In this document: positions 11,262-29,396 of the stretch, piece by piece | Numbering within the stretch: position 1 is the stretch's first letter | How the letters are laid out: each line of letters begins with the position of its first letter | NCBI GenBank assembly: GCA_017441205.1 | Contig: JAFRYG010000024.1 | Span: 6,046-70,045 of the forward strand | Length of the DNA: 64,000 nucleotides | Source of the DNA: Pseudomonadota bacterium | GTDB lineage: Bacteria > Myxococcota_A > Bradymonadia > UBA4248 | Direction: 5' to 3' | The notes under the pieces: generated by a model | Told to the model about the DNA's origin: nothing | The model's database searches: none | The model's input: only the letters and a program-made list of their open reading frames with translations | Position numbers and translations under genes: made by a program

Positions 11262-11561
11262 CACCTACCCCCTGTGCGGGAGTGCCCGCAACGCCCCGCA
11301 AACCTGAATCCCAACAATTTGCCTCAGTTCGCAAAAAGTCTGTTCACTTCACCTCCCAAATCTGATATTCATAAAAAGTATTCTCCGTCAAAACAAATAC
11401 ATGAACTCGCCATTACGCAATTATTTTGTTATGTTGCATAATGTATGGAAGTGAAGAAACGCAGTCTCTGCGCTTCATCGGACATAAACAGTCCATTTTT
11501 GGCGTTTGGTATTGTATCTGCGCCATGTTTGACGCATCACCTCAAGTACATCCGTATTCCC

Positions 11562-14500
11562 ATGTTACGAAAGCTATCCCTGTCCATTGCCCTGTTCCTC
11601 GCAATTTGTTCCCCAGCCCAGGCCGAAACGCCTGCATCGGGGCAAGCTCAAAAACTCGCCGCGCTCATGCAGCAAACGGCGATTGCGGATTCCCTGGGTG
11701 CAGAAGATGCCAATCTGAGTGAAATCGTTAAAATTCAGTCAGATGATCCCATACTTTCGCGCTATCTGGAATGGTCGAGACAATACTATTCACAAAAGTA
11801 TCAGGTTAGTCCCAAGGATTCGCCGCTGCCCGGAGCGGTAACCCAATTTTTCGTCTCATTTCCTTTTGCCAGCACCTCGATGTTTGATTTCGCACGTCCC
11901 TTTTCGCCCGAATCGGGATATGACACATCGAAATCACAGGAAGGTGCCATGTATCCGGCACTAAACTGGATGAAATACGAATCCACCGGAAACTACAGTG
12001 CTGTCCTTGCCCAGGAATGCATTGACAATTCCGGCTTTGTTACGATGTTCCTTGCGACTCGCATACGCATCGATGAGGCCAAGGGAATCGATGCATATCT
12101 CGAAATTCCATCATCCACGCCGGTCGTTGCCTGGATGAACGGCAAAAGAGTACTCGAAAACATCGAAAAAGGCCCGACACCTGCCCCAAAATACGGAGAA
12201 CGATGGCCAATACACCTCAATGACGGAGAAAACATCCTCACCATTAAGGTTGCAGCCCTCGAAACACAGCCGGCATTCTACGTTTTTCTGACGGATCGCA
12301 AGACGGGCAATCCGATTCCCTTCAAAATCGATTTGGAGCAACCCATCGTTTCAGGGCCGCTGGATGACTCGCGCCCGGAAACATCCGAACCGTCCGTTCT
12401 ATTATCCCTGTATAAGGATCAAAGCAATTCACCTGCCCTGCGATCCTATATCGCACGCGAAATCTTTTCCGAAGAAGAAGCCGATCGCCTCGTCAACGAT
12501 CTGCTGTTTACCGATGTTGAAGCGACATCCAATCTGCCGCCCGACGATTTGGAACTGGCAATTCTGGCACTCAACAACCATCCCAAAAGTCTGCAGTTTA
12601 TGGTCCGGGCAATGAAAAAACATGCCAATGATCCGCGCATGCAGCTTCTCTATGCCCGCCAGATGATTCTGGCATCCGAAGATCAGGGGGATACCGGCGT
12701 CCGCTTTGTCGATGAATGGCCGCAAATCCACCAAAACCTCGTTTCGATGACCGCACCCGTCGTCAATGGCATCTCCTACGAACCTCTCAGACGCAAACTC
12801 ATTGCTCTGTCGGAACTCAATGCCCAGCAGACGCTGACTGCCATCCGCGAAATTTCAAAAGATCCGCAAAAATGCCCCGAATGCGAACGATATCTGATTC
12901 CAAATATGATGGGATCATTGACGGATCGTTACCTGGTTGCAGAACATCTCGACTATCTCGAAAAACAGCTCGAGCATGACAGGAATTCATCGGCGCTGCT
13001 CGTCGATATCATGGACGGAAAACTCCGTCGTGCCGTGCTGCGCAATGATGAGTCGGAATTGGCCAAAACACTCGCCGAAATCCAGCAGTCGAGCGAATCA
13101 TTTTTCAAAATTCATCCTTACGACGACTATTTCTGGTCATTCTGGCTCAACGTGGTTTCTGAATATGGACTGGATTCCGAGCGCGTTAAAGCCTCACCGG
13201 AACTTGCGCAAAAGCTCTCTGATGCCGGTTTTTCGGCAGATGCAGACACATGGTTCATGCTTTACCTGTCCCAGAGAGTCAATGATCCCAAACGATGGCA
13301 AAGATATGCAGAGCATTGCCTGAAAACGGGACAAACCGCCGAAGTCATATCTGCCTACGAGATGGCCTCACGCCTTCAGCCCCAGGATACATCACTTTCG
13401 GAACGTTCCGAAATGATGAAAAAGATCGCAAACCATCCGGAAACAGAAAAAGCTGCAGCCAGTTCGGAACCGTCGTTCGAAACGCCGTATATCATCCGCG
13501 AAATTCCTGATAACCGGGATGCCAATGCAACAGGCCTGGTTTCACTGCTCGACAATCGGGTCGTCAAAATCCACGAAAATGGCCTTTCTTCCACGTACAA
13601 CCAAATCGCATTTCAAATTCTCGACGAACAGGGGCTCAAGGCTGTCCGTATGATGCCGATCAACTACTCGCCGACGGACGAAAAGCTGGAAATCATCTCG
13701 GTCACAACGATGAAAAAAGACGGTTCTGTACGTCGTCTGTACGAAACGACCGAGTACAATACTGCCGACGAATCCGTAAAAATGTACTACGATCAGCGGC
13801 AAGTCGTCATTGAAGTTCCTGGACTCGCCGTTGGCGATCGCATCGAATACCAATTCAGGCGAACGCAGATTCAGCGAGCAGCGAGCAGTGTTTCATTTTT
13901 CAGCGACATCTATCAGCTTCAATCCTGGTTCAATCGCCAATGGTCCAGATACACGATCATTGCTCCGGAATCGACGAATGTCACTCTGCTTCGCCACACG
14001 CCGGCGGGGAATCCGACTCAGGTCGGCACGAGCAAAAAGGAAGGCGGCAATATTGTCATTACCTACGAAGAAAAGGATACCCCAAGACTTCTTGCCGAAC
14101 CCCAGATGCCTGGTGCCACAGAAGTCATGCCATTCCTGCTCGTATCGACATTCAGGACCTGGCAGGAACTGACTGACTGGTTTATCGATCTGGCCTCCCC
14201 GCAATGGAAAGCGGATGACGCGATTCGCGCCAAAGTTCAGGAGCTGACCAAAGGCATCGATGATCCCTTCGAAAAGCTCAAACGAATTCATAGTTTTGTC
14301 GTCAAGTCGACGCGATACGTTGCGCTCGAATTCGGCATTCATGGGCATAAACCCTATCCGGCAGCTCAGATTTTTGAACGCCGGTTCGGCGACTGCAAGG
14401 ACAAAGCCAGTCTTCTCAAGGTCATGCTCAGGGAAGCCGGCATTGAGTCAGAATTTGTTTTGGCCAGAACGCGCCAGAATGGCGATGTTACCCTCGATCT

Positions 14501-15323
14501 TCCCAATCCCTATCTGTTTGATCATGCCATACTGTACGTACCGCAGTTTGATCTGTTCCTGGATGGAACGGCGGAATTCAGCGGTACAAGGGAACTTCCT
14601 GCGATGGATCAGGATGCACAGGTACTCGTTCTGAGTGACGCATCCACCTACAAACTGCAAAAGATACCGGTTTCCAAACCATCCGACAATCACGTCCAGC
14701 AAACCTGGGAATTTGATCTGACCCAGGGACAGGATGTCTCATTTGCCTACCATGCAGACTATAGCGGTTACATGGCCCCGAGTTATCGTGAGCGCTACCA
14801 GATTGATTCGCTGCAGCGCGAGCGTCTCGAATCAGAAATTGCCTATAATATCCACGGTTCACAGCTTAAATCCTTCGAATTTTCAGATCTTTCCGATCTC
14901 GAAAAAGACGTTTCACTCAACTATACGGCAACGACGACGCTGAGTGACATCGTCAAGTCGGACGGCAGTCTGTGGCTGGTTACCCCCATGGTCATGCCGA
15001 GCCAGATGGCCAAGAGCTTTGCCTCATCCGCCAAGCGCCGAACACCCATTGTTCAGGCCGTCCCGTTTGTCATCGATAAAACGATTACGCTCATCCTGCC
15101 GCCCGGAGCCAAAGTGACATTGCCGGAAGCAGTCAGTGAATCCGGAAAGTTTGGTTCCTACACGATCACCTCGTCCCTTGCGGATAACCGTCTGACGACC
15201 CAGATTCAGCTTACGCTGACCCAGGTCAAGATTCAGCCCGACGACTATCCTGGGTACCTGGACTTTTTACAAAGCTATGATCGCCGTCTGAACACTCAGT
15301 TCCAAATCAATCTGTCCAAATAA
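11562..15323 (+). CDS. Large secreted protein (~1,250 aa) with a C-proximal transglutaminase-like catalytic domain (DUF3857/transglutaminase-type architecture).
   Basis: Signal peptide MLRKLSLSIALFLAICSPAQA. The catalytic triad context 'RRFGDCKDKASLLKVMLREAGIESEFVLART...LFDHAILYVPQFDLFLDGT' (Cys, His, Asp) can be read directly. The DUF name is from memory of domain architectures. Confidence 0.6.
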   Translation: MLRKLSLSIALFLAICSPAQAETPASGQAQKLAALMQQTAIADSLGAEDANLSEIVKIQSDDPILSRYLEWSRQYYSQKYQVSPKDSPLPGAVTQFFVSFPFASTSMFDFARPFSPESGYDTSKSQEGAMYPALNWMKYESTGNYSAVLAQECIDNSGFVTMFLATRIRIDEAKGIDAYLEIPSSTPVVAWMNGKRVLENIEKGPTPAPKYGERWPIHLNDGENILTIKVAALETQPAFYVFLTDRKTGNPIPFKIDLEQPIVSGPLDDSRPETSEPSVLLSLYKDQSNSPALRSYIAREIFSEEEADRLVNDLLFTDVEATSNLPPDDLELAILALNNHPKSLQFMVRAMKKHANDPRMQLLYARQMILASEDQGDTGVRFVDEWPQIHQNLVSMTAPVVNGISYEPLRRKLIALSELNAQQTLTAIREISKDPQKCPECERYLIPNMMGSLTDRYLVAEHLDYLEKQLEHDRNSSALLVDIMDGKLRRAVLRNDESELAKTLAEIQQSSESFFKIHPYDDYFWSFWLNVVSEYGLDSERVKASPELAQKLSDAGFSADADTWFMLYLSQRVNDPKRWQRYAEHCLKTGQTAEVISAYEMASRLQPQDTSLSERSEMMKKIANHPETEKAAASSEPSFETPYIIREIPDNRDANATGLVSLLDNRVVKIHENGLSSTYNQIAFQILDEQGLKAVRMMPINYSPTDEKLEIISVTTMKKDGSVRRLYETTEYNTADESVKMYYDQRQVVIEVPGLAVGDRIEYQFRRTQIQRAASSVSFFSDIYQLQSWFNRQWSRYTIIAPESTNVTLLRHTPAGNPTQVGTSKKEGGNIVITYEEKDTPRLLAEPQMPGATEVMPFLLVSTFRTWQELTDWFIDLASPQWKADDAIRAKVQELTKGIDDPFEKLKRIHSFVVKSTRYVALEFGIHGHKPYPAAQIFERRFGDCKDKASLLKVMLREAGIESEFVLARTRQNGDVTLDLPNPYLFDHAILYVPQFDLFLDGTAEFSGTRELPAMDQDAQVLVLSDASTYKLQKIPVSKPSDNHVQQTWEFDLTQGQDVSFAYHADYSGYMAPSYRERYQIDSLQRERLESEIAYNIHGSQLKSFEFSDLSDLEKDVSLNYTATTTLSDIVKSDGSLWLVTPMVMPSQMAKSFASSAKRRTPIVQAVPFVIDKTITLILPPGAKVTLPEAVSESGKFGSYTITSSLADNRLTTQIQLTLTQVKIQPDDYPGYLDFLQSYDRRLNTQFQINLSK

Positions 15324-15356: not shown

Positions 15357-18300
15357 ATGCGCAAAATAGCCTTTGTATTGGCCCTTTCCCTTACTGTTCT
15401 GTCATACGGCTGTGCGACGACATCCCAGTCACGCCAGGGCACATGGTCTGCATGGCCCTCGCAAGCCTCGATGTCCGATACGCTGAAATCCTCGATTGCC
15501 GACATGAAATCGGGCGATCTGCAGGCTGCCGATGCCAGATTGACGCCTGACGTCAGATCCGCCGATCCTGCAGCCAGTTACCTGCATGCAGAGATTACTG
15601 CCCTGCGCGGACAGACGGCTGCTGCCGCAGATTTGATGACGGATTTTATCGCACAAAACCCACAGAATCCGCTCGTTTCTGCAGCGCTCGTCAGGCTTCT
15701 CTCCCTGAGCAATACCTCCAGTTCTCCGCTCAACTGGGAAAAGGTATCCCAGCTGAAAGTCAACGATCCCTATGCCGCTGCGCGCCTCGTCATTCTTCAA
15801 AACCGGGCACTCAGGGAAACCCATCATCCCGACCTGAAGCATCCGACAGCCCTGCCCCTGGTAAAATGGCAATGGGTTGGACCATTTACCCCTTATATTT
15901 ACACGGGATTCGAATCTGAACAGCCATTTGACGGCGATCCCATCCTCGGCGAAAGCTACGAATTGGACGGCAAACGACTCGAACGCTTTCAATACCCTGC
16001 GGACAGTTCAACGCCCATGGCATCCTCCATGTCGGGCGTTTATGCCGCAGAAACCCGCATTCAGGTCGATCGTGAAATGCCGGTTCAAATCATCGTTCAG
16101 GGCGCGCAGCTCTATACGATATTTGTCGACGGCAATCCCGTACTCTCGCGCGATTTCTCGCAATTCGGCAAGGAATCCGTACTTGCTTCGCGCTTCGTTC
16201 TTCCCCAGGGAGAACATATCATTCGACTGCGTCTTGGATTGAATGCAGCCACCGCTTCCAATCACCACGTTGCCCTTTGGATTGCGCCGTCGGATTTCAC
16301 CAGCAAAACAGACGATCTCAGTGCCCTCAGGGAACTTGACGATTTGTCCGGCAAATTGCCGGATAAAACAGAAATCAAAAAACTCGAACGCATCGACCTG
16401 ACGCATATTCTCGGCAGCACGACAGAACCAGCTGCTGATGAAACCATGCGTTCGTGGATCGGTGCATCCATGGCAGTTCTGACCGGAAGACCCCAAATCG
16501 CCGAAACCCTGATTCAGGGAGCTCTTCAGAAAGATCCCGACGATATCATTGCCCAGTATTGGAAAGCCATGCGATATCGGGCAGACGCCGATCTTGATCC
16601 TTCGCTCAGATCAGAAAATACCATCCATATTCTCAAGGATATTGCAAAAAAAGCGCCGCAGCTCGCAGCGGTTCAGCAGCTGCTCATTTCGGAATTTCTC
16701 AAACAGCAGCAGCCCAAACAGGCACTCGAAATCTGGGAAAAACATAAGAATACCCTGCCCGATACTGCAGAAATGAATTCCCTGCTGAGCGAGCTGTCCA
16801 AAACACTCGAATGGTATGACATTTCGAAGGAATATGCCCTCAAAGCCATGCAGAAGGCACCGAATTCCTGTTCGCTCGCAGTCAATGCATTTAACATCCA
16901 GACGCAGCGCAATGCCTATACATCGTTCGAGCAGCTGTCTCCGCGAATCCAGTCCTGTCCATCCATCGTTCGCGCCTATTCAAAGCTGGAAGGCAATGAT
17001 GCCGCTGAAAAATCGCGCTGGTTCAATGCGCTCGATCAGCTCGCCAAAGACAATCCCAACGACAGCTCAATCCGCCTGGAAGCCATTCTGGCCAAATCTC
17101 CGACGGCCCCAGAAAGTGCTGCGCGCGAATTTCTCGAACTCCTCGATGCCGTGTCAAAAGGCTATTATCCCAATATTTCGACAGAATCGGCGCTGGTATT
17201 GATAGATAATCTGCGCGCCGCCGGACACGAAAAGGAAGCCGAAAACGTTTTGGCAAAGATTCTCGAGCTCTATCCTGTCGCAGAAGTTTTCAGAAATATG
17301 GAATGGCAGCACCACCAGGATCGTCCTTTGAGTGAACTGCGCATTGACGGCATGAATACCATCAAAGAATATCTCGCACAGAACCGAGACGATGCCGGCA
17401 GCTCCGTCATGCTCCTGGATTATGCAGCCACCCGGATTTTCCCCACGGGTGCAAAACTGGGACTGACGCATCAGATTTCGCGCGTTCTGAGCAAAGAAGG
17501 CAAAAATGAGGTCGGCGAAATCTATCTTCCCTCCCACGCATCAGTTCTCAGAATCCGTACGATAAAAGATGGAACATTCGAAATCGTCGAACCGGAAACC
17601 ATCGATTTTAAAGATTCTGTCACTGCCCCCAACCTCGAAGTCGGCGACTATGTTGAAGTCGAATATCTGACATTCGAACCAGCGGCTTCGCGCTACATTC
17701 CCCGAGTTGCAACCGATACATTTTTCTATGGTTCCAACCAGAGCCCGCTCGTCCGCTCGGAGTATGTGTTTGAATACCCCAAAGACTGGCATGTCGAGAT
17801 CGTGGAATCCGGCCCCCGGAATCAGATTCAGCAATCCTGTGCACCGGTTGGCGAATTCATGCGTTGCTCGGCAAAACGAGAAAACATCCCGGTATTCATT
17901 CCTGAACCGCGTGCGGCCTCTCCTATCGATCTGATACCCAATATCCAGGTTTATTATCATTACGACTGGGATTACATCCGCCAGGGACTCCATGAATCCA
18001 TTACACGCCAAACGCGCGTAACCCCATACGTTCAGAGATTTTACGATAAACTTGCCGTTCCCGAAGGCGATTCGGTCTGGGAACATGCGAGAGCCATCTA
18101 CGATCAAGTCGTTGAAAGCATCGACGAAAGTGAAACGATGCGCACCAATGATGACGAAACCGCGACGAATTCCATCACGCGTGGAACCGGTTCGCGATTC
18201 ATTACCCTGAAATCGCTCTACGATATTGCCGACATTCCGAATTATTTTGCGCTCGTACACTCCATCCTGGCACCGGAAAACAGCGAACAGCTGCCTTCCA

Positions 18301-19130
18301 TGTACGAAAATGCCTATGTCACCCTGCTCGTCGTCGAAACCGAAAAGGGACCGGCATATCTTCAGCCGACAGAAGATTATATCCCCTTTGACTACTTATC
18401 GGCAGATCTTCAGGGACAGACGGTCATTCCCGTCGATCCCGCCTACGAAAGATTCATTTCGCGCCAGGAGAATCCGGAACTGCAGAGAGCAACGATCGCT
18501 ATTCAATACGAAATTTCTGAAGACGGCACAGCCAAAGCAAAATCGACTGAAGTCATGAGAGGCTCCCGGGCTCTCGTCATGCGCAACTTTCTCAATACGG
18601 TCAAAAACGATAATGACAAAGCCCAGCAGGTCGTTCAGAACAGCCTTGCCAATAACTATGGCCGCATCGAACTGACGCGCCTGGAGCACGAACAGCTCGA
18701 CGACAAGAATAAGCCCCTGACACTGCACTACGATTTCGATATCGCGAGTTTTGCCGCAGCATCAGATGGTAAGCTGGATATTATTTCGCGCATATTCGCA
18801 TATAATCTCGTCAATCAGTTTGCCCAGCTTCCGCCTTCCCAAAGGAAATATCCTGTACTCATCGATTCCGACATGCTTTCGGAACGAACGCTCACGTTCC
18901 ATGCTCCTGCCGGTTATACCTGGGATACGACGACACTGCAGGACATCAGTCTGGAGACAAAATTCGGCAAATTCAGCCGTCATACCCAACTCAACGCCGA
19001 GACCCTCGAAGTCAAAGAATCCATACAAATCCGTCCTCAGCGCATCCAGCTTGATCAGTATGCGGAATTCAGGGAATTCTGCCTCGCGGTGGATGAAGCC
19101 CAGAGAACTGTGATTTCGGCCAAAAAGTAG
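15357..19130 (+). CDS. Paralog of the preceding large protein: a lipoprotein of similar size and architecture whose equivalent triad positions appear substituted (likely inactive).
   Basis: Lipoprotein signal (LSYGCATTS). The segment 'RGTGSRFITLKSLYDIADIPNYFALVHS...YENAYVTLLV...YLQPT' aligns by eye to the active-site region of 11562..15323 with C>S, H>N and D>Q. Confidence 0.5.
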   Translation: MRKIAFVLALSLTVLSYGCATTSQSRQGTWSAWPSQASMSDTLKSSIADMKSGDLQAADARLTPDVRSADPAASYLHAEITALRGQTAAAADLMTDFIAQNPQNPLVSAALVRLLSLSNTSSSPLNWEKVSQLKVNDPYAAARLVILQNRALRETHHPDLKHPTALPLVKWQWVGPFTPYIYTGFESEQPFDGDPILGESYELDGKRLERFQYPADSSTPMASSMSGVYAAETRIQVDREMPVQIIVQGAQLYTIFVDGNPVLSRDFSQFGKESVLASRFVLPQGEHIIRLRLGLNAATASNHHVALWIAPSDFTSKTDDLSALRELDDLSGKLPDKTEIKKLERIDLTHILGSTTEPAADETMRSWIGASMAVLTGRPQIAETLIQGALQKDPDDIIAQYWKAMRYRADADLDPSLRSENTIHILKDIAKKAPQLAAVQQLLISEFLKQQQPKQALEIWEKHKNTLPDTAEMNSLLSELSKTLEWYDISKEYALKAMQKAPNSCSLAVNAFNIQTQRNAYTSFEQLSPRIQSCPSIVRAYSKLEGNDAAEKSRWFNALDQLAKDNPNDSSIRLEAILAKSPTAPESAAREFLELLDAVSKGYYPNISTESALVLIDNLRAAGHEKEAENVLAKILELYPVAEVFRNMEWQHHQDRPLSELRIDGMNTIKEYLAQNRDDAGSSVMLLDYAATRIFPTGAKLGLTHQISRVLSKEGKNEVGEIYLPSHASVLRIRTIKDGTFEIVEPETIDFKDSVTAPNLEVGDYVEVEYLTFEPAASRYIPRVATDTFFYGSNQSPLVRSEYVFEYPKDWHVEIVESGPRNQIQQSCAPVGEFMRCSAKRENIPVFIPEPRAASPIDLIPNIQVYYHYDWDYIRQGLHESITRQTRVTPYVQRFYDKLAVPEGDSVWEHARAIYDQVVESIDESETMRTNDDETATNSITRGTGSRFITLKSLYDIADIPNYFALVHSILAPENSEQLPSMYENAYVTLLVVETEKGPAYLQPTEDYIPFDYLSADLQGQTVIPVDPAYERFISRQENPELQRATIAIQYEISEDGTAKAKSTEVMRGSRALVMRNFLNTVKNDNDKAQQVVQNSLANNYGRIELTRLEHEQLDDKNKPLTLHYDFDIASFAAASDGKLDIISRIFAYNLVNQFAQLPPSQRKYPVLIDSDMLSERTLTFHAPAGYTWDTTTLQDISLETKFGKFSRHTQLNAETLEVKESIQIRPQRIQLDQYAEFREFCLAVDEAQRTVISAKK

Positions 19131-19273: not shown

Positions 19274-20602
19274 TTAAATTTTATTGACGCGCCCCATGAA
19301 GAGAGCGGTATTGGTATCGGTTTCCATCAGGAAGAACAAGAAGGGGTGATCGACGACAATTTCGATCGGATTCGAGGGAGGCGGAAGCATTGCCTTTGTC
19401 CGCATAACCACTGCGGTTGCGGCAGCAGCTTCGGCACCTTTTTCGTTCACATCGATGTAAGCTTTTTGAAGCACCTCGGAAATCATGAGTTCGTCGGAAT
19501 CAGACATGCGCGAGAAATCTGCATCGTGTGTAAAAGCCGTCGTCATGCCGAGAGAATTCAGCATCTGCCTGAGGGAAAGGCTCGTTTCGATGCGGAATTT
19601 CGGCATTTTCAGCTTCACCATGCGACTCGACATTGCTTCGCGCATTTTGCGAATCTCTTCTGCGGTCAAAGTCGCGGTAACCTTATTCAGGGCTTCGTCG
19701 ACATCGACGCCATCGGCAACTTTCGGCAGGATGACAAACAGCGAATAACCGCCGATGAATGACAAATCCACTGCGATAAAAGCTTCATTATCCAGATAGA
19801 CGCGATGCTTTTTGTTATGCTGCATCATATCGACCTGGATGACGCCGTCGTGCGTTTTAAAATCGGCCTTTTGCGTTGCCGATTCACTGAACGAATCAAA
19901 CCATGGGGCCTTAAAATAGATGGCATTGGTCAAAACGACGCGCGTCAGTGAGCTGAGAATACCCGGAGGCAGAATATCCTGGATTTTGCCCTGAGTGGAT
20001 TCTGCAACGTCAGCATTGATGGTTTTGCGGGCATTTTCCGTATCGCCGATGAAATCGAGCTGACGCGGCTTAACGTCGTAGGCTGCAGATACACGCTCCA
20101 TATAATCAGGCAAAAGATTGCTCGTTTTTTCAACCCAGATGCGATTGTCTATCGTGACCGTAACATTTTCGTCAGAGGCAGACTCAGCCATTGCCTTCTC
20201 GACATCTTTACCCATTTCGCTCAAATTCTTTGCATCCGGCAGCCCAAGAGCCTTTCTCATCTCGGAAATTGTGGTTCCGCATGCACCTTCGTAGACCATT
20301 CCCAAAGCTCTCTGTGCCGAGAAAGGAGAAACGACAGCCGAACCTTCCTGCATATTTCTGAGCATATTCAGACCGAAATTGTTATTGGCATCGCTCCATG
20401 CAGCCATTTCGATTGCCGCATCAGAACTCACGACACACTCTTTTGGGGCAGCTTTGGGAGCCGGAACGTTGGCATTATCGGAATTTTCCGCAGTCTGGTT
20501 CTCGGAAACAGCGGTTTCGACGTTTTCGGGAGTTTGCTTTTTGGAGCATCCCACGAGACACATTGCGGCAATGATACCTGTAATTATCAGAGATTTTTTC
20601 AT
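19274..20602 (-). CDS. Serpin-family lipoprotein (serpin 2) with a canonical inhibitory hinge.
   Basis: Start re-set to MKKSLIITGIIAAMCLVGCSKK (lipobox). The core 'VVSPFSAQRALGMVYEGACGTTISEM' and the hinge 'EKGAEAAAATAVVMRTKAML' match the inhibitory E-x-G-T/A-E-A-A-A-A-T consensus. C-terminal 'VDHPFLFFLMETDTNTALFMGRV'. Confidence 0.8.
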   Translation of the reverse strand: MKKSLIITGIIAAMCLVGCSKKQTPENVETAVSENQTAENSDNANVPAPKAAPKECVVSSDAAIEMAAWSDANNNFGLNMLRNMQEGSAVVSPFSAQRALGMVYEGACGTTISEMRKALGLPDAKNLSEMGKDVEKAMAESASDENVTVTIDNRIWVEKTSNLLPDYMERVSAAYDVKPRQLDFIGDTENARKTINADVAESTQGKIQDILPPGILSSLTRVVLTNAIYFKAPWFDSFSESATQKADFKTHDGVIQVDMMQHNKKHRVYLDNEAFIAVDLSFIGGYSLFVILPKVADGVDVDEALNKVTATLTAEEIRKMREAMSSRMVKLKMPKFRIETSLSLRQMLNSLGMTTAFTHDADFSRMSDSDELMISEVLQKAYIDVNEKGAEAAAATAVVMRTKAMLPPPSNPIEIVVDHPFLFFLMETDTNTALFMGRVNKI

Positions 20603-20907
20603 AACAATCCTGGAGCAACAATCAAACATCAAAACGAATGCCCGTTTCGAAATCATCCGTCCTGTAAATGGAAATCGTGGAACTGACAAAACCGGAAAAC
20701 CGGGATTCATCCGAATATCCGGAATTTCCGATCACTGTATGGTAATACTAACGATAAATGCGATGTTTTAGAAAGAAAAAATTGAGCAAACATCTTCCGG
20801 AATACGGTCTTTATACTTTACCCTAAAACGTGGATATAATATGATATAATCAGTTCGATATGCCAAAGACTGTCCTCCGCAAGGAAGGCGTGTCTTGAGT
20901 CTGCTCA

Positions 20908-22686
20908 TTGCAGATCAGCAAAATACGGGAAAGCAATATGCGTCTAAGAGAACTCAAAAACGGTGTTCAAATCTGTCCGGAAATCACACTTGATTCGCTG
21001 CTTTATACCCATAACAGCATTGCACTCTACCTGGCATCCGACACTGACAGTGGGCATACACTGGTTCATCTTTTGCCGGATATTGAGGATGCCTCCCTCG
21101 AAGTTCTGCAAAAAGTCGTTGAGTTCTATAAAGATAACCTCAAGCTCGAAACGCGCTGCGGTCGTTTTGAAGAGTTTTTATATTTTTCAGAGCCATTTCC
21201 ATTGGGTGAATACATGTTTGAGTGGCTTGAACGCCGGGAACGCGTAGCCCTTCCCGAAGCCCTCAAACGCATCATCTCTTTGCTCAAGATACTGCAGCAG
21301 GCGCACGAAAAGGACATTTACAATGGCCGCATTACGCCTCAGTCCGTTCTTCTTGAGCGTTCGGGAGTTGCCTTTGGTCTGAGAATGATGGGACTCGGCG
21401 TAGCCCAGGCTTTGCCCCCCTCGCTCAGATACGATATCGACTGGTTCGACTATACGTTCGACCTGGAAGGCATGAGCCCTGCTGCCGTTGATATCTATGG
21501 TATTGCCATCATTCTGATGGGATTGGTCAGCGGTGAATCCGGAATCGACAGCTTCGAAGCCACCGGTCTGCTGCCGCAATCCCTGCGCGGCGGCATTCTT
21601 CAACAGGCCATGGAACGCGCACTCGCACTCAGAATCGACGCATACCCAACCATCCTTGCGTTCAGCCTCGATCTCGAAGCTGCGCTGCTCGAAATTGACG
21701 ACCGTCAGGGCGAAGTCTACGTCGGCGACCTCGTCGGTTTTGAATCTGCCATAAAAAGCATCTCAAGTATTCATGAGGAAAAGCCCGAAAACTCAGGCGT
21801 CTGGAGTTCGATGTTCGAGACGCTCGAACAGAATGAACGCTCGAGCCTTTTGTGCTCCCTGACATCCCTGACCGCAATCCCTGCCCTCGGCCCCGAAGAT
21901 GACGATGATATTACCAAAGTAACCACATTGCCTCAGGCCCTCGTCGGCATGCAGCGTATCAAATCCGCACATCAGCACGAGGACGAATGCAAAACCGATA
22001 TCCTCGCAGCTCCAATGGCTCTGCAGGACGAGGTAGACAATTCATCCGCCGAGGCCGCAGAGGTAGACAATTCATCCGCCGAGGCCGCACCCGAGGAACA
22101 GGCACCTGCGCAGCCGGATAAACCCGAAGACAAATTCGCCAGTATCAAAAATCTCGAAGCCGAACTGCAGAGCGATGACGAGGAAGATGATGCTCCAACG
22201 CGCGTCATGATGCGTCCGAATTATGCCACCATCAGTTTTGGGCAAACCGGACAGGGCGTCAACTCTTCCATCGAAGAAGTCATTAAGAATTCTTCATCCG
22301 AACGGGCAACCGTCACGACCATGCTGGATCGCATCCAGCAGGCAACCGTTATCGAATTCGAGTGCGAACTCAAACACGACATCCAGTATGATCCCAATGA
22401 TCCTGTTGCATTTCCACCGGAAGACGAATCCCAGGACAGCCAGTCTGACGATTCACCGAATTCTTCTCTCGTCAGGAATGCAGCAGAAGCCAAGTCAAAA
22501 ACCAAAACCGGCAAATCACCAAATATCAATGCCCCGCAAAAAGCTGATGTCGTCGCCCACACATCCACGCACTTCAAGGCACCCAGCAAATTCAGCAAGG
22601 GCCAGAAGTTCCTCCTGATATTCCTCATCATCGTTGTCATTGCTCTGGGAATCGCGATGGCCATGCATTATTACCATTTAATATAA
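20908..22686 (+). CDS. C-terminally membrane-anchored pseudokinase (degenerate Hanks-type kinase fold).
   Basis: Kinase-like subdomains are present, but the catalytic loop reads 'NGRITPQSVLL' where HRDLKPENILL is expected (Asp lost) and DFG reads 'MGLG'. Subdomain IX-like 'DIYGIAIILMGLVSG'. Acidic repeat DNSSAEAAEV x2. C-terminal TM 'FLLIFLIIVVIALGIAMAM'. Confidence 0.45.
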   Translation: MQISKIRESNMRLRELKNGVQICPEITLDSLLYTHNSIALYLASDTDSGHTLVHLLPDIEDASLEVLQKVVEFYKDNLKLETRCGRFEEFLYFSEPFPLGEYMFEWLERRERVALPEALKRIISLLKILQQAHEKDIYNGRITPQSVLLERSGVAFGLRMMGLGVAQALPPSLRYDIDWFDYTFDLEGMSPAAVDIYGIAIILMGLVSGESGIDSFEATGLLPQSLRGGILQQAMERALALRIDAYPTILAFSLDLEAALLEIDDRQGEVYVGDLVGFESAIKSISSIHEEKPENSGVWSSMFETLEQNERSSLLCSLTSLTAIPALGPEDDDDITKVTTLPQALVGMQRIKSAHQHEDECKTDILAAPMALQDEVDNSSAEAAEVDNSSAEAAPEEQAPAQPDKPEDKFASIKNLEAELQSDDEEDDAPTRVMMRPNYATISFGQTGQGVNSSIEEVIKNSSSERATVTTMLDRIQQATVIEFECELKHDIQYDPNDPVAFPPEDESQDSQSDDSPNSSLVRNAAEAKSKTKTGKSPNINAPQKADVVAHTSTHFKAPSKFSKGQKFLLIFLIIVVIALGIAMAMHYYHLI

Positions 22687-22689
22687 TGA

Positions 22690-23685
22690 ATGGTTCGTGA
22701 ACCTTTGCACATCATCCGCAATGCATTCATCCTCATTCCACTCGCCATAACGGGAATCCTCTTTTGGAATCCCAATGTGGCCCAGGGAACCGAGTGGCCG
22801 GATTGTCAGTTGTCCAATTCGGCATACTGCAGCAACTCCTGGCAGGGTGGATATGCATTCGCACATTGGATAAATCAACAATCACCACAAACGCTTTACC
22901 AGGATGAAGGCAGCATTGAACAAATCCATGCCAATCCTGCGCACCTCCTGATATGGCCGAATCCCCCAGCCGTCTCACTTCAGACAGTCCTCGATATTCT
23001 GGCTTCGGGATCCAGTATCCTCGTATTTGATGAGTCTGATACGACGCTCGAATGGTATCGGAATCTGTTCGATAAACGTGCCATAACCATCGATTCCCCG
23101 GCAATTCAGCAGGCATCACATATCAATGGAAGCCAGGCGCTCCCCGTCATTCCTCCAACCAGGGATTTCATCCGGGATCTTGAGTTTGCCGGCGATACCT
23201 CGCAATGGCAGATCGCATTCAATCATCCCTCCCCCATCGTCGTACATGAACAGGGACATACGAGTTTTCACCTTGTCTTTGCTTTCCGAAATCCTCATAC
23301 TGAAAATTCCGGAACCGCCGTCATCATCCGAGACGAAAGTACATGGACAGAACTCATGATGAATACGCTCGACAATTCAAAATTCCTCCATGCCATTCTG
23401 GACTCCATGTGTCCGGCAAAACAAGCATGCACGATTCACTTGTATGAACCGGCATTCCAGTGGTCCGCCCCCGTCATTTCCGATGAACCCGAATCCCCTG
23501 AATGGCAGGAAACCATTCAAAAAAGCATTGAACAGTCGCGCCAAAAATGGACGGACTGGATGGATTCCAACGAACCCCTGTTCAAACAAATTCCCTGGAA
23601 AGAAATTCTCATTTCCATCCTTTTGCTTTGGACAATCATCGCTGTCATCGCCATATTTCCTCTGACAAGGACAAAATCAGGTTGA
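22690..23685 (+). CDS. Hypothetical membrane protein with N- and C-terminal TM helices.
   Basis: The start lies 3 nt after the previous stop. Hydrophobic segments at both termini. The topology resembles DUF4350-type proteins (memory only, not asserted). Confidence 0.3.
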   Translation: MVREPLHIIRNAFILIPLAITGILFWNPNVAQGTEWPDCQLSNSAYCSNSWQGGYAFAHWINQQSPQTLYQDEGSIEQIHANPAHLLIWPNPPAVSLQTVLDILASGSSILVFDESDTTLEWYRNLFDKRAITIDSPAIQQASHINGSQALPVIPPTRDFIRDLEFAGDTSQWQIAFNHPSPIVVHEQGHTSFHLVFAFRNPHTENSGTAVIIRDESTWTELMMNTLDNSKFLHAILDSMCPAKQACTIHLYEPAFQWSAPVISDEPESPEWQETIQKSIEQSRQKWTDWMDSNEPLFKQIPWKEILISILLLWTIIAVIAIFPLTRTKSG

Positions 23686-23692
23686 GGATGTC

Positions 23693-25834
23693 ATGTTCAT
23701 TTTGCTCATTCTCCCCCTGCTTGCCCCCATTTCGATAATGCAATTTGTCCAGCAGCTGGAAGCGACCAGTCTGCCCGCGCTCATTCGCTGGCATCCGGGA
23801 GTCTGTTTCCGCCCGACAGAACAAACAGCAGCGCTCTCCAAAGATCAGGAAATTACCTGCGTTCTGGCACACGCCGGACAGTACCCGCCATCACGTTCCC
23901 AATTCAATCATATTCAGAATCAGTGTTGCTTCTTCGAGCCTGCGGAGAATGGTATTTTCTGGGCCATCGGAGAATCCGTGATGTCACAGGTCATCCCGGT
24001 TTCCAAAGAAAATCTGGAAGCGACCAATGTTTTCGGCTGCTCGCACGAAGAATTTGAACTCCACGCCGCAGAACTCCAGGATATACTCGCACTGGATACG
24101 ACCAACGATGAACCCATTCCGGATGTCCGAATCACCCTTTCGGATGATTCCGTCCACCTGATTTCCTACACAAAAGTCACGGATGATGACGGCTACGCCG
24201 TATTTCCCGTCATCCCCGGTGAAAACTACGTCATCACCATGCGCGCAGATGGATATCTTCCGGCTGCGCCGCAAAAAATTACTGGCACAGCTGATACCCG
24301 GCAGGAATACGTCGTCGAACTCGATCCCGGCCTGTCCCTGTCCGGCACGGTTTTGTCCCCGCAATCTGCTCCCATCAATAATGCACACCTCCACGTCGAA
24401 ATCGAACGCCCCGATGGCAGTCTCTGGAGCTCCGACATCGATCAGCCCCGCAACATATCCGGCATAGCAAGGCATTCCCAGGACGAGTGGTCTTCCTCGC
24501 GAAGTTCCTGGTCGACCTCCGAAAACGGCAGATTTCGCGTTACCCCCCTTCCTCCCGGCAAGATCCGCATATTCGCAGAACACAGCAGCTATGCTCCTTC
24601 TGCATGGCTGTCCCTGGATGCCGTCAATACCAGAGATCTCCCGGAAGTCACCCTCACGACGAAGCCCCCGAAACACGCCTGGATCCGGGTAGAATCTCAG
24701 GAACACGTTGCCATTTCCGCAGATCTGACCATTCTGGATGCAGAAACCGGTTATGAAGTTTCGTCCATCAAAACACCCAAAACCGGATCCCTCGAACTTA
24801 AAACGCTCCCGGAAAAAGTCGTTTTCTTTGCATTTTCAGACAGTTACGCCCCACTCCGCGTCGAACGCTCCATACAGGATCACGACGAAATCATCCTCAC
24901 GCTCGATCAGGCCGTTTCGGATTCCATCACCATCTCACTCTTCAACCGGGATAATGTCCCACTCCAGAATGCCACACTGAGCCTGGCCTCTTCCGAACAG
25001 CAAAAGTCCCACCCACTTTGTCTTGCCAAAACAGATTCCCAGGGAAAGGCAACCCTCGAATTCTGCCCCAAATCTTTCTGGATCGATGTTTTTCATCCCG
25101 ATTATACCCATCACCGCCAGTTTATCACGCTCGACAAGCCTGCTGCCGAAATCTATCTGTCCACTGGTCAGGACATTCAAATTGCGATGATCGACGAACA
25201 AACCGGTGAACCCGTTTCCGACGTCACATGCACGCTGAATTCGACTTTCACTGAATCCGGTTCATCCTCCGTCCTCAGCGAAACGATTCAGGTCACCGAT
25301 GGACACCTCGTCGCACGACATCAGGCCGACGTCCCCCACAAAATCCAGTGTACGGCATCGCCCCAGCGAACGATTACACAGGAATTTCAGCTTTCGGAAG
25401 TGCCCGAATCCCTGAAATTCCCCCATGTTATTACACGTTCATGCGTCGTTCTGGACGCATTCGGTGCAGCCATTCCCTACGCCCGCATCGACATGGGCAA
25501 TCAACAGTTAGAAACGGACGAAACCGGCCGCATTCATCTGACTGCCATTCCCAATACGACACTCCATGTCTACCACTGGCAGCACGGACACACGCAAATG
25601 CACTTTTCGGAAGGCACGTCCGAACTCGAACTTCGCCTCCCCGATACCCCCATGCCCGGACTCGCCGACTGCCTCACAGCCCATCAAATGCCGCATATTC
25701 AGGACAGTGCTGCCATCCAGCTCGATTCTTCGAACAAAAAATATGGTACGCAGCGCGGCGATTATGCAGAATCCTGCACCGACTCACAACTCGTCATCGT
25801 TCGCGATGGCAATCGCATTCGTATTCGCTGGTAA
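23693..25834 (+). CDS. Large secreted protein with repeated carboxypeptidase-regulatory-like (beta-sandwich) domains.
   Basis: The start lies 7 nt after the previous stop. Recurrent 'D..G.a.l......Y.l...a.GY' units (DDDGYAVFPVIPGENYVITMRADGY; KTDSQGKATLEF; ETDETGRIHLTAIPNTTLHV). Confidence 0.35.
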   Translation: MFILLILPLLAPISIMQFVQQLEATSLPALIRWHPGVCFRPTEQTAALSKDQEITCVLAHAGQYPPSRSQFNHIQNQCCFFEPAENGIFWAIGESVMSQVIPVSKENLEATNVFGCSHEEFELHAAELQDILALDTTNDEPIPDVRITLSDDSVHLISYTKVTDDDGYAVFPVIPGENYVITMRADGYLPAAPQKITGTADTRQEYVVELDPGLSLSGTVLSPQSAPINNAHLHVEIERPDGSLWSSDIDQPRNISGIARHSQDEWSSSRSSWSTSENGRFRVTPLPPGKIRIFAEHSSYAPSAWLSLDAVNTRDLPEVTLTTKPPKHAWIRVESQEHVAISADLTILDAETGYEVSSIKTPKTGSLELKTLPEKVVFFAFSDSYAPLRVERSIQDHDEIILTLDQAVSDSITISLFNRDNVPLQNATLSLASSEQQKSHPLCLAKTDSQGKATLEFCPKSFWIDVFHPDYTHHRQFITLDKPAAEIYLSTGQDIQIAMIDEQTGEPVSDVTCTLNSTFTESGSSSVLSETIQVTDGHLVARHQADVPHKIQCTASPQRTITQEFQLSEVPESLKFPHVITRSCVVLDAFGAAIPYARIDMGNQQLETDETGRIHLTAIPNTTLHVYHWQHGHTQMHFSEGTSELELRLPDTPMPGLADCLTAHQMPHIQDSAAIQLDSSNKKYGTQRGDYAESCTDSQLVIVRDGNRIRIRW

Positions 25835-27407: not shown

Positions 27408-29396
27408 TCAGCCCATCCTGCCCAGACCATCCAGAACGACGCGCATCGAAGCCGGTCTGTCATAGGGATTCGGCGAAAGGCAGGATTCGACCAGCTGGGC
27501 TATCGAAACCGGAACCATGGGATTAATCTGACGAATCGGTTCAAAAATGCCCGACATCTGAGCCGTATAAATTGCAACTGCATTCGAACCATTATAAGGC
27601 AGACGCTGAGTAAAACACTCATAACATACGACGCCGAACGAAAACACATCCGCCTGAACCGTAATCGGCTCACCACGGGACTGTTCCGGAGCCATATAAA
27701 ATGGCGTCCCAATCCCCTGGCCAGGAATATTTGCACACGGCATATCCATCGTACTCGCGATGCCGAAGTCCATCAGATACGGATGAAACGAATCCGCTTC
27801 TATCATGATATTCGCGGGTTTTAAATCGCGATGGATGACGCCCCTGTCATGTGCAGCCACAAGTGCTTCTGCAACCTGTATCAACAGCCTCAGGCTCATC
27901 ATCAGCGGCAGCGGTGATTCCTTCAGATGCTGACTCAGATTCTTGCCGTTGATGTAGCGCATCGTAAAGAAATACAATCCTTCGAGCTGCTCCAGATGAT
28001 AAGCAGGAAGAATATAGGCATGCTCCAGATCCCGCGTAATTTTCAATTCGCGTTTAAAACGCTGAAGCCAGGCCGCATCCGAAACAAGCTCCGGACGAAG
28101 CACCTTGAGCGCAAGAATCTCCGTCAGAATCGTATCCAGAACCTTATAGACCGTCCCGGTTCCGCCAGACCCCAGCTCATCCAGAATCTGATAGCGCGAA
28201 CGCGCCAGAACCTCTGCCGGAGAAATCGTCACAGCAGTCCTCAGACCCGAATTGATCGTCCAGAAACTGTTGGAACTGCGATGGACAACGCGCGTTTCAA
28301 AGCCTTCAATGGCCGGAGATGTCAGCGTGTCTTCAAAAACGATATCCCCGCCCGACGACCGCTCAACCGGCGTTTCTGATGATTCCGGCCCTCTGGCATG
28401 CAGCGATCTGTTGCGGTCACTCGATGGCACTTCCACTGAAATACAGGCTTCATCTCCCGTAATGAGATTGATGACGTCACTCCGAAATTCCACACTCTCC
28501 GTTGTCAGCACCGGCGGAAAATCATCAAAATGCCCCCGCATGATATCCATGCGGACTTCCGGCGGCTGATAAGTCCCAAACGCCAGGATAATCTCCTCAA
28601 GTGCCTGCGCAAGCTGACGATAGGATCCAAAACGCTGCTGCGGACGCTCCGCAAGTGTATGGTGGAAAAACTCTATCGCAATCTTCAGTGACTCACCGGG
28701 AATATTCGACCGGTTCAGCACATCCATCATCCCCATCCAGCGAGGTTCCCATTCATCCGGCTGAAATTCACTTGTAATGCATTGATAAAGCAGAGCACCA
28801 ACCGAATAGACATCGCTTTCAACGCTCACTGCTTCGTGGCGTCTCCATTCGGGCGTGTCGAACTTTTCATTCATTTCCGAGTCAAAGCGGAATCGACGAC
28901 GCATCTCAGCCTCGACGAATCCCTTCACATAGACTTCACCCGTCTGCGACATCAAAATATACGGCGGTATCAGCGAAAAATGAGTCAGCTGCCTCTGATA
29001 GGCTTCGTCCAGAACATTGACGGCATCTCTGAGCACCGACGCAAAAAATGCCGGACTCAGTGTATTGCCGCCCTTGCCGGCCAGCTGCGACATCTCACCA
29101 ATCGACAGATGCGCCCACTCATAGGGATAAACCGCATACGCCCCCTGCGAACGGCTCAGCCCAAGTTCGCAGAGCGGAATAAGCCCCGGCATCTGAATAT
29201 GCGAATAACGGCGACAGGCATCCTGGAAACAAAGCCGAAGCTCCGCAGTCCCGCACAATTCCTTGCTCAACGCAATGATATTGTACCAACGACTGCTATC
29301 CTCCTCGGCTGTCGCAAGATAGTACTCATAGTAACGCGGCGAATCCAGCGTCTCTCGCACAACGTAACCAGGAAATTGTCCAACCCGTTGAAACAT
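27408..29396 (-). CDS. Tandem kinase protein: an N-terminal pseudokinase domain plus a C-terminal active Hanks-type Ser/Thr protein kinase.
   Basis: The C-terminal domain carries GSGGTGTVYK, ALK, HRDLKPANIMI, DFGIAS and TPFYMAPE. The N-terminal domain keeps the kinase fold (subdomain IX 'SDVYSVGALLYQCIT') but has HFSLIPPYIL for HRDLKPENIL and KGF for DFG, and lacks the Gly loop. Confidence 0.75.
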   Translation of the reverse strand: MFQRVGQFPGYVVRETLDSPRYYEYYLATAEEDSSRWYNIIALSKELCGTAELRLCFQDACRRYSHIQMPGLIPLCELGLSRSQGAYAVYPYEWAHLSIGEMSQLAGKGGNTLSPAFFASVLRDAVNVLDEAYQRQLTHFSLIPPYILMSQTGEVYVKGFVEAEMRRRFRFDSEMNEKFDTPEWRRHEAVSVESDVYSVGALLYQCITSEFQPDEWEPRWMGMMDVLNRSNIPGESLKIAIEFFHHTLAERPQQRFGSYRQLAQALEEIILAFGTYQPPEVRMDIMRGHFDDFPPVLTTESVEFRSDVINLITGDEACISVEVPSSDRNRSLHARGPESSETPVERSSGGDIVFEDTLTSPAIEGFETRVVHRSSNSFWTINSGLRTAVTISPAEVLARSRYQILDELGSGGTGTVYKVLDTILTEILALKVLRPELVSDAAWLQRFKRELKITRDLEHAYILPAYHLEQLEGLYFFTMRYINGKNLSQHLKESPLPLMMSLRLLIQVAEALVAAHDRGVIHRDLKPANIMIEADSFHPYLMDFGIASTMDMPCANIPGQGIGTPFYMAPEQSRGEPITVQADVFSFGVVCYECFTQRLPYNGSNAVAIYTAQMSGIFEPIRQINPMVPVSIAQLVESCLSPNPYDRPASMRVVLDGLGRMG

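Follow-up and report, generated by a model that had tools for sequence, protein, structure and literature searches.

A tail-anchored pseudokinase encoded with a DUF4350/GIFT relative and an exported beta-sandwich protein in gut and rumen Myxococcota

Described systems and the P1-P2-P3 operon

Proteins of the DUF4350 family (arCOG01314) have a signal peptide, an extracytoplasmic domain and a C-terminal transmembrane (TM) helix; Makarova et al. link them to GldG and predict that, with MoxR and vWA proteins, they form a secretion or membrane-remodelling complex (PMC5898192). GldG, IFT52 and OST48/Wbp1 are scaffolds of the GIFT type, a domain concept summarised in PMC7226087, where Beatson and Ponting are cited for the proposal that GIFT domains bind sugars. 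Here, we describe a relative of these proteins in an unfamiliar setting: a three-gene operon, P1-P2-P3, in the genome of an uncultured bacterium of the Myxococcota from gut or rumen (GenBank assembly GCA_017441205.1, contig JAFRYG010000024.1). We analysed a 64,000 nt stretch of this contig (positions 6,046 to 70,045), referred to as the window, and all coordinates are positions within it unless another locus is named. P1 is a tail-anchored Hanks-fold pseudokinase, P2 a divergent DUF4350/GIFT protein, and P3 an exported multi-domain beta-sandwich protein. The three parts are of known kinds; what is new is the combination of a DUF4350 relative, a dead kinase and a beta-sandwich protein.

Bacterial pseudokinases have barely been studied, and roles are known for just a handful, namely EssB/YukC, MviN, SidJ and SelO. 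EssB/YukC is a membrane pseudokinase of type VIIb secretion that serves as a non-catalytic scaffold, and similar roles have been suggested for other membrane pseudokinases (PMC12599244). The pseudokinase of MviN (MurJ) from Mycobacterium tuberculosis, which belongs to the ActPs3 family, is phosphorylated by PknB and then bound by FhaA, and the GLW family is defined by GLW in place of HRD, a poly-Leu stretch (LLLL/W) in beta3, and a C-terminal TM helix (PMC12599244). Within the Myxococcota, the Myxo2 Ser/Thr kinases combine a kinase domain, a TM helix and a Peptidase_M14NE-CP-C/CarboxypepD_reg-like domain (bioRxiv 10.1101/2025.01.12.632604).

P1, P2 and P3 are tightly packed open reading frames (ORFs), all on the + strand. 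The P1/P2 junction reads TAA-tga-ATG (22684-22692) and the P2/P3 junction reads TGA-ggatgtc-ATG (23683-23695), so the gaps are exactly 3 nt and 7 nt, as the initial annotation of this DNA had stated; GAGGA lies a short distance 5' of the P3 start codon. The same annotation placed the P1 start at TTG 20908, which is probably 30 nt too far upstream. We place it at ATG 20938, most likely the true start, because every P1 homologue, and the called gene P0001 (582 aa, 100% identical), begins with MRLRELK. The operon and its parts are as follows.

20938..22686, + strand: P1, tail-anchored Hanks-fold pseudokinase, 582 aa
20938..21705, + strand: P1 pseudokinase domain, aa 1-256, from profile, Foldseek and hhalign comparisons
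21322-21345, + strand: P1 catalytic-loop remnant, NGRITPQS
21391-21399, + strand: P1 DFG remnant, GLG
21706..22608, + strand: P1 acidic, mostly disordered linker, aa 257-557, with a predicted local distance difference test score (pLDDT) <50 over most of its length
22609..22665, + strand: P1 C-terminal TM helix, aa 558-576, Kyte-Doolittle 3.18, followed by 6 residues
22690..23685, + strand: P2, truncated DUF4350/GIFT-fold membrane protein, 331 aa
22690..22788, + strand: P2 N-terminal signal sequence, aa 1-33, probably cleaved after AQG
22807..23469, + strand: P2 periplasmic GIFT/DUF4350 domain, aa ~40-260, with invariant D114, N178-H179, D215, S217 and N229
23221-23235, + strand: P2 motif NHPSP
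23329-23340, + strand: P2 motif RDES
23605..23661, + strand: P2 C-terminal TM helix, aa 306-324, followed by a 7-residue basic tail, LTRTKSG
23693..25834, + strand: P3, exported multi-domain beta-sandwich protein, 713 aa
23780..24022, + strand: P3 N-terminal Cys-rich domain, aa 30-110, with invariant C38, C56, C78 and C79
24095..25591, + strand: P3 CarboxypepD_reg/transthyretin-like beta-sandwich array, aa 135-633
25640..25834, + strand: P3 C-terminal domain, aa 650-713 (~65 residues), with an invariant RGD at 25754-25762

Folds, residues and topology of P1, P2 and P3

As a single sequence, P1 matches no Pfam family at significance, and its matches to kinases in NCBIfam are faint (PknB_PASTA_kin, E 1e-3). 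A profile of 12 family members, searched against the PDB, matches Stk1/PknB of Staphylococcus aureus (9ymt, 4eqm) with E 1e-6 over residues 30-201, pairing HGRITPKSILLE with HRDIKPQNILID, LRLMGLGVAQAL with LKIFDFGIAKAL, and DIYGVAIVLMGLVSGE with DIYSIGIVLYEMLVGE. The AlphaFold2 model of P1, with pLDDT of ~80-94 across most of residues 1-200 and lower, patchier values to residue 256, also has Stk1 as its top Foldseek match (E 1.4e-12, TM(target) 0.64, ~270 aligned columns), followed in the ranking by PknB, PknA and PknS. Alignment of P1 to the active kinase domain of a Ser/Thr kinase encoded nearby gave an hhalign probability of 93% in the region of the catalytic loop and DFG, and precomputed PF00069 matches are present on three P1 homologues. 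The kinase fold read from the sequence in the initial annotation is thus borne out, with significant similarity at the level of both profile and structure.

The residues needed for catalysis are gone from this fold. In P1, NGRITPQS stands in place of HRDLKPxN and GLG in place of DFG. The position of the HRD Asp is His or Arg in 120 of 120 homologues, the catalytic-loop Lys is replaced by Thr and the DFG Asp by Gly in every one of them, and the beta3 position is occupied by His (117 sequences) or Ser (three), and by Lys in none; these counts are redundant, with ~92 of the 120 homologues forming one species-level cluster, and 12 diverse sequences give the same pattern. A Gly-rich loop (GxGxxG) was not found in the alignment of 12. 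P1 lacks the catalytic residues, as do all 120 homologues, and it is therefore a pseudokinase rather than a kinase. The dead catalytic loop described initially holds for the family, but its wording as NGR does not: NGR is a minority variant (11 of 120), and the family motif is HG[HR].

Downstream of the pseudokinase domain, the linker is strongly acidic, with 56 Asp and Glu against 23 Lys and Arg in residues 257-550, and it carries three motifs that are invariant in all 120 homologues: EVYVGDLVGFESA; SGVWSSMF.TLEQ.ERSSLLCSLTSLTA; and DDAPTRVMMRPNY (22186-22224), the last of which reads DDAPTRVM.RPNY across the family. T309, T326 and T421 are likewise invariant in 120 of 120, and T421 sits in APT-R-[VI]-[MIV], with a hydrophobic residue at +3. 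Bacterial FHA domains have a general preference for pT-x-x-hydrophobic, which the context of T421 fits; we treat this as a lead, not a result. At the C-terminus, the AlphaFold2 model has a helix at residues 554-581 that spans the predicted TM segment, and a hydrophobic tail is present in 12 of 12 aligned homologues, in keeping with the earlier description of P1 as membrane-anchored. Basic residues precede this helix and just six residues follow it; therefore, essentially the whole of P1 would be cytoplasmic.

P1 resembles EssB/YukC in having a cytoplasmic N-terminal kinase-like domain with three degraded catalytic motifs and a single TM helix (PMC12599244). However, EssB has a sizeable extracellular C-terminal domain and is encoded among type VII secretion system (T7SS) genes (EssC, EsaA, WXG100) in Bacillota, whereas P1 has ~6 extracytoplasmic residues, its cytoplasmic linker is disordered and ~300 residues long, and its top-ranking folds are of the PknB type. 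We rejected P1 as a member of the EssB/YukC family: the protein ends six residues past the TM helix, and there are no T7SS families among the 27 window ORFs that were scanned. MviN is, like P1, a membrane-attached bacterial pseudokinase in an envelope context, and offers a template for the role of the invariant Thr residues; unlike P1, which is a separate tail-anchored protein, it is actinobacterial, is fused to a flippase and an extracellular carbohydrate-binding domain, and has the motifs VALT and LSIDHPSR. GLW, the one described proteobacterial membrane pseudokinase family with a C-terminal TM helix, shares just that helix with P1. Compared by motif definition, P1 is not a GLW pseudokinase, since in its family the HRD position reads [HN]G[HR] and beta3 reads L-[LV]-H-[ILV].

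The initial annotation did not recognise the combination of proteins in the operon. In scans with P2 as a single sequence, the Pfam and NCBIfam matches are all sub-threshold, and PF14258 (DUF4350) scores 13.4 bits against a gathering cut-off of 30.4 bits (E 0.096), albeit over positions 3-180 of the 181-position profile. Word-index homologue searches returned just two to four relatives. An exhaustive HMMER search of 1.84 billion representatives with a four-sequence P2 profile returned only 64 proteins, ~30 of which are a close family of 260-335 aa. Nine of the distant matches (E 3e-8 to 1e-4) were scanned, and each of the nine proved to be a bona fide DUF4350 protein (Pfam E 4e-13 to 3e-20). 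In a joint alignment, the P2 family and DUF4350 have W51, G53, D114, N178-H179, D215, S217, M223 and N229 as common invariant residues. The AlphaFold2 model of P2 (mean pLDDT 87) has IFT52 and OST48/Wbp1 as its closest structural relatives, with ThuA-like proteins, GH42-type trimerisation domains and class I amidotransferase folds among lower-scoring matches; this GIFT-type fold agrees with the link between DUF4350 and GldG (Makarova et al., PMC5898192). P2 is thus recognisable, at the level of profile, residues and fold, as a divergent DUF4350/GIFT relative. Its sequence identity to GldG, IFT52 and OST48/Wbp1 is just 10-13%, and the partner of GldG, the GldA/GldF ABC transporter, is absent from the P1-P3 locus, where nothing gives evidence of a function in glycosylation or gliding. 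Searches of PDB sequences with P2 and P3 profiles gave spurious or insignificant matches only, and a metagenome scan with the P2 profile recovered the source contig and one known lineage, and nothing further. Two large proteins, P0152 (1656 aa) and P0176 (994 aa), match the P2 profile at residues ~139-171 only (HINGN..LPV), 14 times and seven times, respectively; in other settings, this short motif may be repeated in tandem.

The hydrophobic segments of P2 span residues 8-30 and 306-324, and both had been described as TM helices. Both segments are there, but the first ends, in the window and in homologues, in A-x-A or A-x-G sites (AQG, AWA, VYA, AFA) and is probably a cleaved signal peptide. 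For this reason P2 is most likely a type I, single-pass membrane protein, like OST48/Wbp1 and arCOG01314, and not a two-TM protein. Two conserved Cys pairs flank its domain. P2 shares with the DUF4350 proteins of MoxR-DUF58/vWA operons the same layout, the invariant residues and a GIFT/GldG-like fold; moreover, some canonical DUF4350 proteins are fused to CarboxypepD_reg, the domain type of P3. By contrast with canonical DUF4350 proteins, P2 falls below the Pfam cut-off, has no MoxR, DUF58 or vWA gene nearby, and is preceded instead by a pseudokinase gene; in addition, most canonical proteins have ~100-150 extra cytoplasmic residues after the TM helix, and the P2 family lacks these.

The pattern of invariant residues raises the question of whether P2 is an enzyme. 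D114, N178-H179, D215, S217 and N229 would then form an active site on a class I glutamine-amidotransferase-like fold that hydrolyses an envelope polymer or peptide, with P3 as a substrate-binding or regulatory subunit and P1 as a regulator. All of these polar residues are invariant when the P2 family is compared with bona fide DUF4350 proteins, at an overall identity of ~16-20%, and a gene for a serpin, a serine-protease inhibitor, is a recurrent neighbour of the operon (see below). Nonetheless, we consider catalysis by P2 improbable, given that IFT52 and OST48/Wbp1, its closest structural relatives, are non-catalytic scaffolds, and that no activity is known for any DUF4350 protein.

P3 begins with a hydrophobic segment (residues 1-19) that is an export signal, and it matches PF13620 (CarboxypepD_reg) with E 6e-26 and 91.1 bits, against a cut-off of 32.3 bits; the same family is matched by seven of seven P3 orthologues. 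P3 is thus a large exported beta-sandwich repeat protein, as had been proposed. Segment scans resolve two strong units, at residues 135-209 and 215-322 (E 3.5e-9), and two weak ones, at 415-482 and 585-633 (E 0.024 and 0.034); the spacing suggests about six tandem beta-sandwiches. The N-terminal Cys-rich domain and the C-terminal domain match no family; between them, P3 is an unremarkable array of CarboxypepD_reg repeats. It has 12 Cys residues, which, together with the conserved Cys pairs of P2, fit an oxidising compartment. We rejected P3 as a bacterial alpha-2-macroglobulin: its bMG3 match scores 23.8 bits against a cut-off of 34.9 bits, and it has no CxEQ thioester motif. The RGD in its C-terminal domain (aa 688-690) is invariant in seven of seven orthologues, one of them just 30% identical; an adhesion motif of the integrin type is one possibility for a host-associated bacterium, and a mere structural turn is another.

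Taken together, the three proteins recall the Myxo2 kinases, which occur in the same phylum and likewise place a cytoplasmic Hanks domain and a carboxypeptidase-regulatory-like ectodomain on the two sides of the membrane. Unlike Myxo2, in which an active kinase forms part of a single polypeptide, the Hanks domain here is dead, the architecture is split, and a DUF4350 gene lies between the two halves. Compared by described architecture, the trio is at best an analogue of Myxo2.

Conservation and neighbourhood of the operon

We surveyed gene neighbourhoods in one genome per GTDB species, supplemented by contig look-ups. The relatives are metagenome-assembled genomes (MAGs) labelled Myxococcota, Myxococcales or "Proteobacteria bacterium", from samples that include Hadza human gut, roe deer omasum and water buffalo rectum; the name of one contig, as we read it, suggests an origin in the pig gut catalogue. 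Loci carrying P1 have the arrangements listed here; L013 and L014 are on contigs that end too soon for the arrangement to be judged.

Window (L018), L003/L004/L011/L019, L005, L007, L008, L009 and L010: P1-P2-P3, same order and strand (the P3 of L009, which is counted here, is cut by the contig end)
L001/L002/L006 (UBA4248): P1-P2, then a cation ATPase, with no adjacent P3
L012: P1 alone, with the P2 of the same MAG on a separate contig (L023)

The triplet is therefore conserved in seven species, with intergenic distances of -4 to ~100 nt in the relatives. Where flanks were read for this comparison (L001 and L003), they differ from each other and from the window, so conservation of the triplet is not simply residual synteny. 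These observations bear on the possibility that three unrelated genes have been packed together by chance. Members of the trio can indeed be separated, in L001, L012, L015, L021 and L023, as would be expected of chance neighbours, and the initial view of the three genes as one unit holds for their order and spacing but not in every genome. However, seven species share one gene order and orientation despite the different flanks of L001 and L003, the spacing is tight or overlapping in all seven, and fusions join the domain types of P2 and P3. Chance packing was already disfavoured, and we regard it as very improbable indeed.

P2 and P3, the more widely conserved pair among the three genes, also occur next to each other without P1, with a 4-nt overlap in L015/16 and a 2-nt gap in L022, and they are convergent in L020. 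The genes 5' of P2 in loci without P1 (282 and 305 aa in L015, 275 aa in L020, 359 aa in L023) were considered as cryptic pseudokinases and rejected, since none has similarity to P1 by BLASTP or hidden Markov model; one of them encodes a BRCT domain. Two of the distant DUF4350 proteins, P0161 and P0168, have CarboxypepD_reg domains in the same polypeptide, and the gene for P0161, the fusion whose locus was read, is followed by MoxR and DUF58 genes, i.e., the classic DUF4350 context. No MoxR or DUF58 gene is among the 27 scanned ORFs of the window, and MoxR and DUF58/vWA genes are absent from the flanks of all P1 and P2 loci that were read. Since P2-P3 pairs exist without P1, and beta-sandwich/DUF4350 fusions exist as well, we view P2-P3 as a core and P1 as a lineage-specific addition: from these gene arrangements, P2-P3 looks like an older functional pair derived from DUF4350 systems, and P1 looks like a later recruit within one clade of gut Myxococcota. 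A further pairing of a kinase with a DUF4350 relative is found in L021 (1631-7909); there, instead of P1 and P3, the P2 homologue is preceded by an active kinase-TPR protein of 699 aa and an FG-GAP repeat protein of 948 aa.

The kinship with DUF4350 systems could mean that the trio is an assembly, secretion or membrane-remodelling device, with P2 and P3 as its extracytoplasmic part and P1 as a purely structural hub that serves the export or surface display of P3 or another cargo, not signalling. DUF4350 is GldG-like and has been placed with MoxR and vWA proteins in a predicted secretion or remodelling complex (PMC5898192), the P0161 fusion adjoins MoxR and DUF58, EssB/YukC-type membrane pseudokinases scaffold secretion systems (PMC12599244), and P3, with its invariant RGD, could be a displayed adhesin. 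We nevertheless think such a device unlikely, though it deserves serious thought: no ATPase, channel or other energy source is encoded within or beside the operon at any of the loci read, the secretion function put forward by Makarova et al. is itself a prediction, and in structure P1 is matched best by PknB-type kinases, not by EssB.

The region 5' of P1 and the neighbouring genes contain the following features.

20817..20845, + strand: promoter-like site 5' of P1 from a consensus scan, TTTACC, a 17 nt spacer and TATGAT
20811-20851 and 20866-20896 (L007 3620-3710; L014 6915-7003): promoter-like block and hairpin in the 5' untranslated region (5'-UTR)
19274..20710, - strand: serpin (PF00079, E 1e-99) with a lipoprotein-type signal (..AAMCLVGC..), divergent from P1
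1811-3082, + strand: second serpin gene, 17 kb upstream
3145-4422, - strand: third transglutaminase-like protein, further upstream
11445-15323 and 15357-19130, both + strand: adjoining giant proteins of 1292 and 1257 aa
27408-29396, - strand: soluble Ser/Thr kinase, 662 aa
29732-33652, + strand: protein of 1306 aa
50921-52474: AAA ATPase
52585-54618: FHA-domain protein
54824-56707 and 57122-59026, both - strand: ORFs of 627 and 634 aa

Scans of promoters and terminators gave total matches at chance level; nonetheless, the block CTTTACC...GATA..AT is kept 5' of P1 in L007, L009 and L014, where the proteins are just 54-64% identical, and it resembles a promoter. The block (CTTTACC, ~17 nt, TA..AT) is thus present in four lineages, with a 5'-UTR hairpin downstream of it. 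The hairpins of L007 and L014 combine a perfect 8-10 bp stem with a U-run and look like terminators or attenuators (L007 z -3.9), whereas that of the window contains G-U pairs, lacks a clear U-run and falls short of significance (z -0.88). An Rfam scan of the region 5' of P1 found no family match.

Serpins are uncommon in bacteria. A serpin 43-48% identical to that of the window adjoins the module in L005, L007, L009, L010 and L014, and there is none in the flanks of L001, L003/L011 and L008; it is a recurrent neighbour and at most a candidate part of the module. One explanation would be protease protection, with P3 and the lipoprotein serpin forming a protease-binding shield or decoy held by P2, and with the P3 array resembling, weakly, the macroglobulin domains of bacterial alpha-2-macroglobulins. 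The serpin adjoins the module in the window and five other species, the hosts dwell in gut or rumen, and four of seven P3 orthologues have weak bMG3 matches. On the other hand, bMG3 falls short of the Pfam cut-off and the thioester motif is missing, as described above, the serpin is not in the flanks of several loci, and a shield of this kind leaves a cytoplasmic pseudokinase unexplained. On balance, we consider protease protection distinctly improbable. In a PADLOC search, which we used to consider anti-phage defence and which led us to reject it, P1 gave weak generic kinase matches (E 2e-4 or worse), and P2, P3 and the serpin gave none.

The kinase encoded at 27408-29396 has an active C-terminal kinase domain (Pkinase E 2e-49), and its N-terminal ~300 residues are like a degenerate kinase domain (Pkinase E 9e-4, below the cut-off), with HFSLIPPYILM in place of HRDLKPxNIL; as judged from these matches, it would be a tandem pseudokinase-kinase arrangement. 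The two giant proteins contain TPR, DUF3857, transglutaminase core and DUF3858 domains in partly overlapping match sets, and the 1257-aa protein begins with a lipoprotein-type signal; neither is conserved beside the module in other loci. The sole Pfam match of the 1306-aa protein is a C-terminal 4Fe-4S ferredoxin (Fer4_13), the other ~1250 residues being without a match. The ORFs of 627 and 634 aa, which lie downstream of the FHA-domain protein and the AAA ATPase, have no Pfam match at E 1e-4 or better.

A possible role for the trio

It is reasonable to regard the trio as an envelope signalling or assembly module, as the initial annotation suggested, and the observations fit signalling and assembly alike. 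Of the two, we tentatively favour signalling, with somewhat less than even confidence: the trio may be an inner-membrane complex in which a periplasmic binding platform is joined to a non-catalytic cytoplasmic adaptor. P2 and P3 would form the platform at the inner membrane and bind an envelope glycan or protein ligand, as might be expected if GIFT domains bind sugars. The TM helix of P1 would associate with that of P2, and P1, acting as the adaptor, would substitute for the cytoplasmic tail and the MoxR/DUF58 partners of canonical DUF4350 proteins. The pseudokinase domain and the linker motifs, including T421, might then dock onto, or be phosphorylated by, active Hanks kinases and FHA proteins. 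Envelope state would thereby be coupled to cytoplasmic phospho-signalling, and the trio would be a split, catalytically dead functional counterpart of the Myxo2 receptor kinases.

Several points weigh against such an adaptor. With an extracytoplasmic part of ~6 residues in P1, coupling must run via the TM helices, and the sequence of the P1 TM helix is poorly conserved. The trio is separable, with P1 alone in L012 (P2 being on L023) and no adjacent P3 in L001/L006. Genes for active kinases or FHA proteins do not recur next to the module in the loci read. Sugar binding by GIFT domains is itself a proposal, phospho-Thr/FHA docking is suggested by motif resemblance, and we infer a physical complex of P1, P2 and P3 from the arrangement and predicted features of their genes.

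A bolder version of the adaptor proposal is that the trio is a hitherto undescribed transmembrane machine in which a new family of tail-anchored dead kinases has taken the place of the MoxR ATPase/vWA module found in DUF4350 systems; the pseudokinase would then serve as the cytoplasmic control hub of a periplasmic GIFT and beta-sandwich platform. We think this rather unlikely; if true, it would be the first functional handle on the widespread DUF4350 systems. The proteins that give these systems their name are found in many bacteria and archaea, and no function is known for them. The P1 family has no Pfam match and is not GLW. It is narrow and lineage-specific, with no known phenotype, in a host-associated lineage of gut and rumen Myxococcota known here only from MAGs. 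For both the DUF4350 and the dead-kinase families, the operon offers concrete partners and a testable model.

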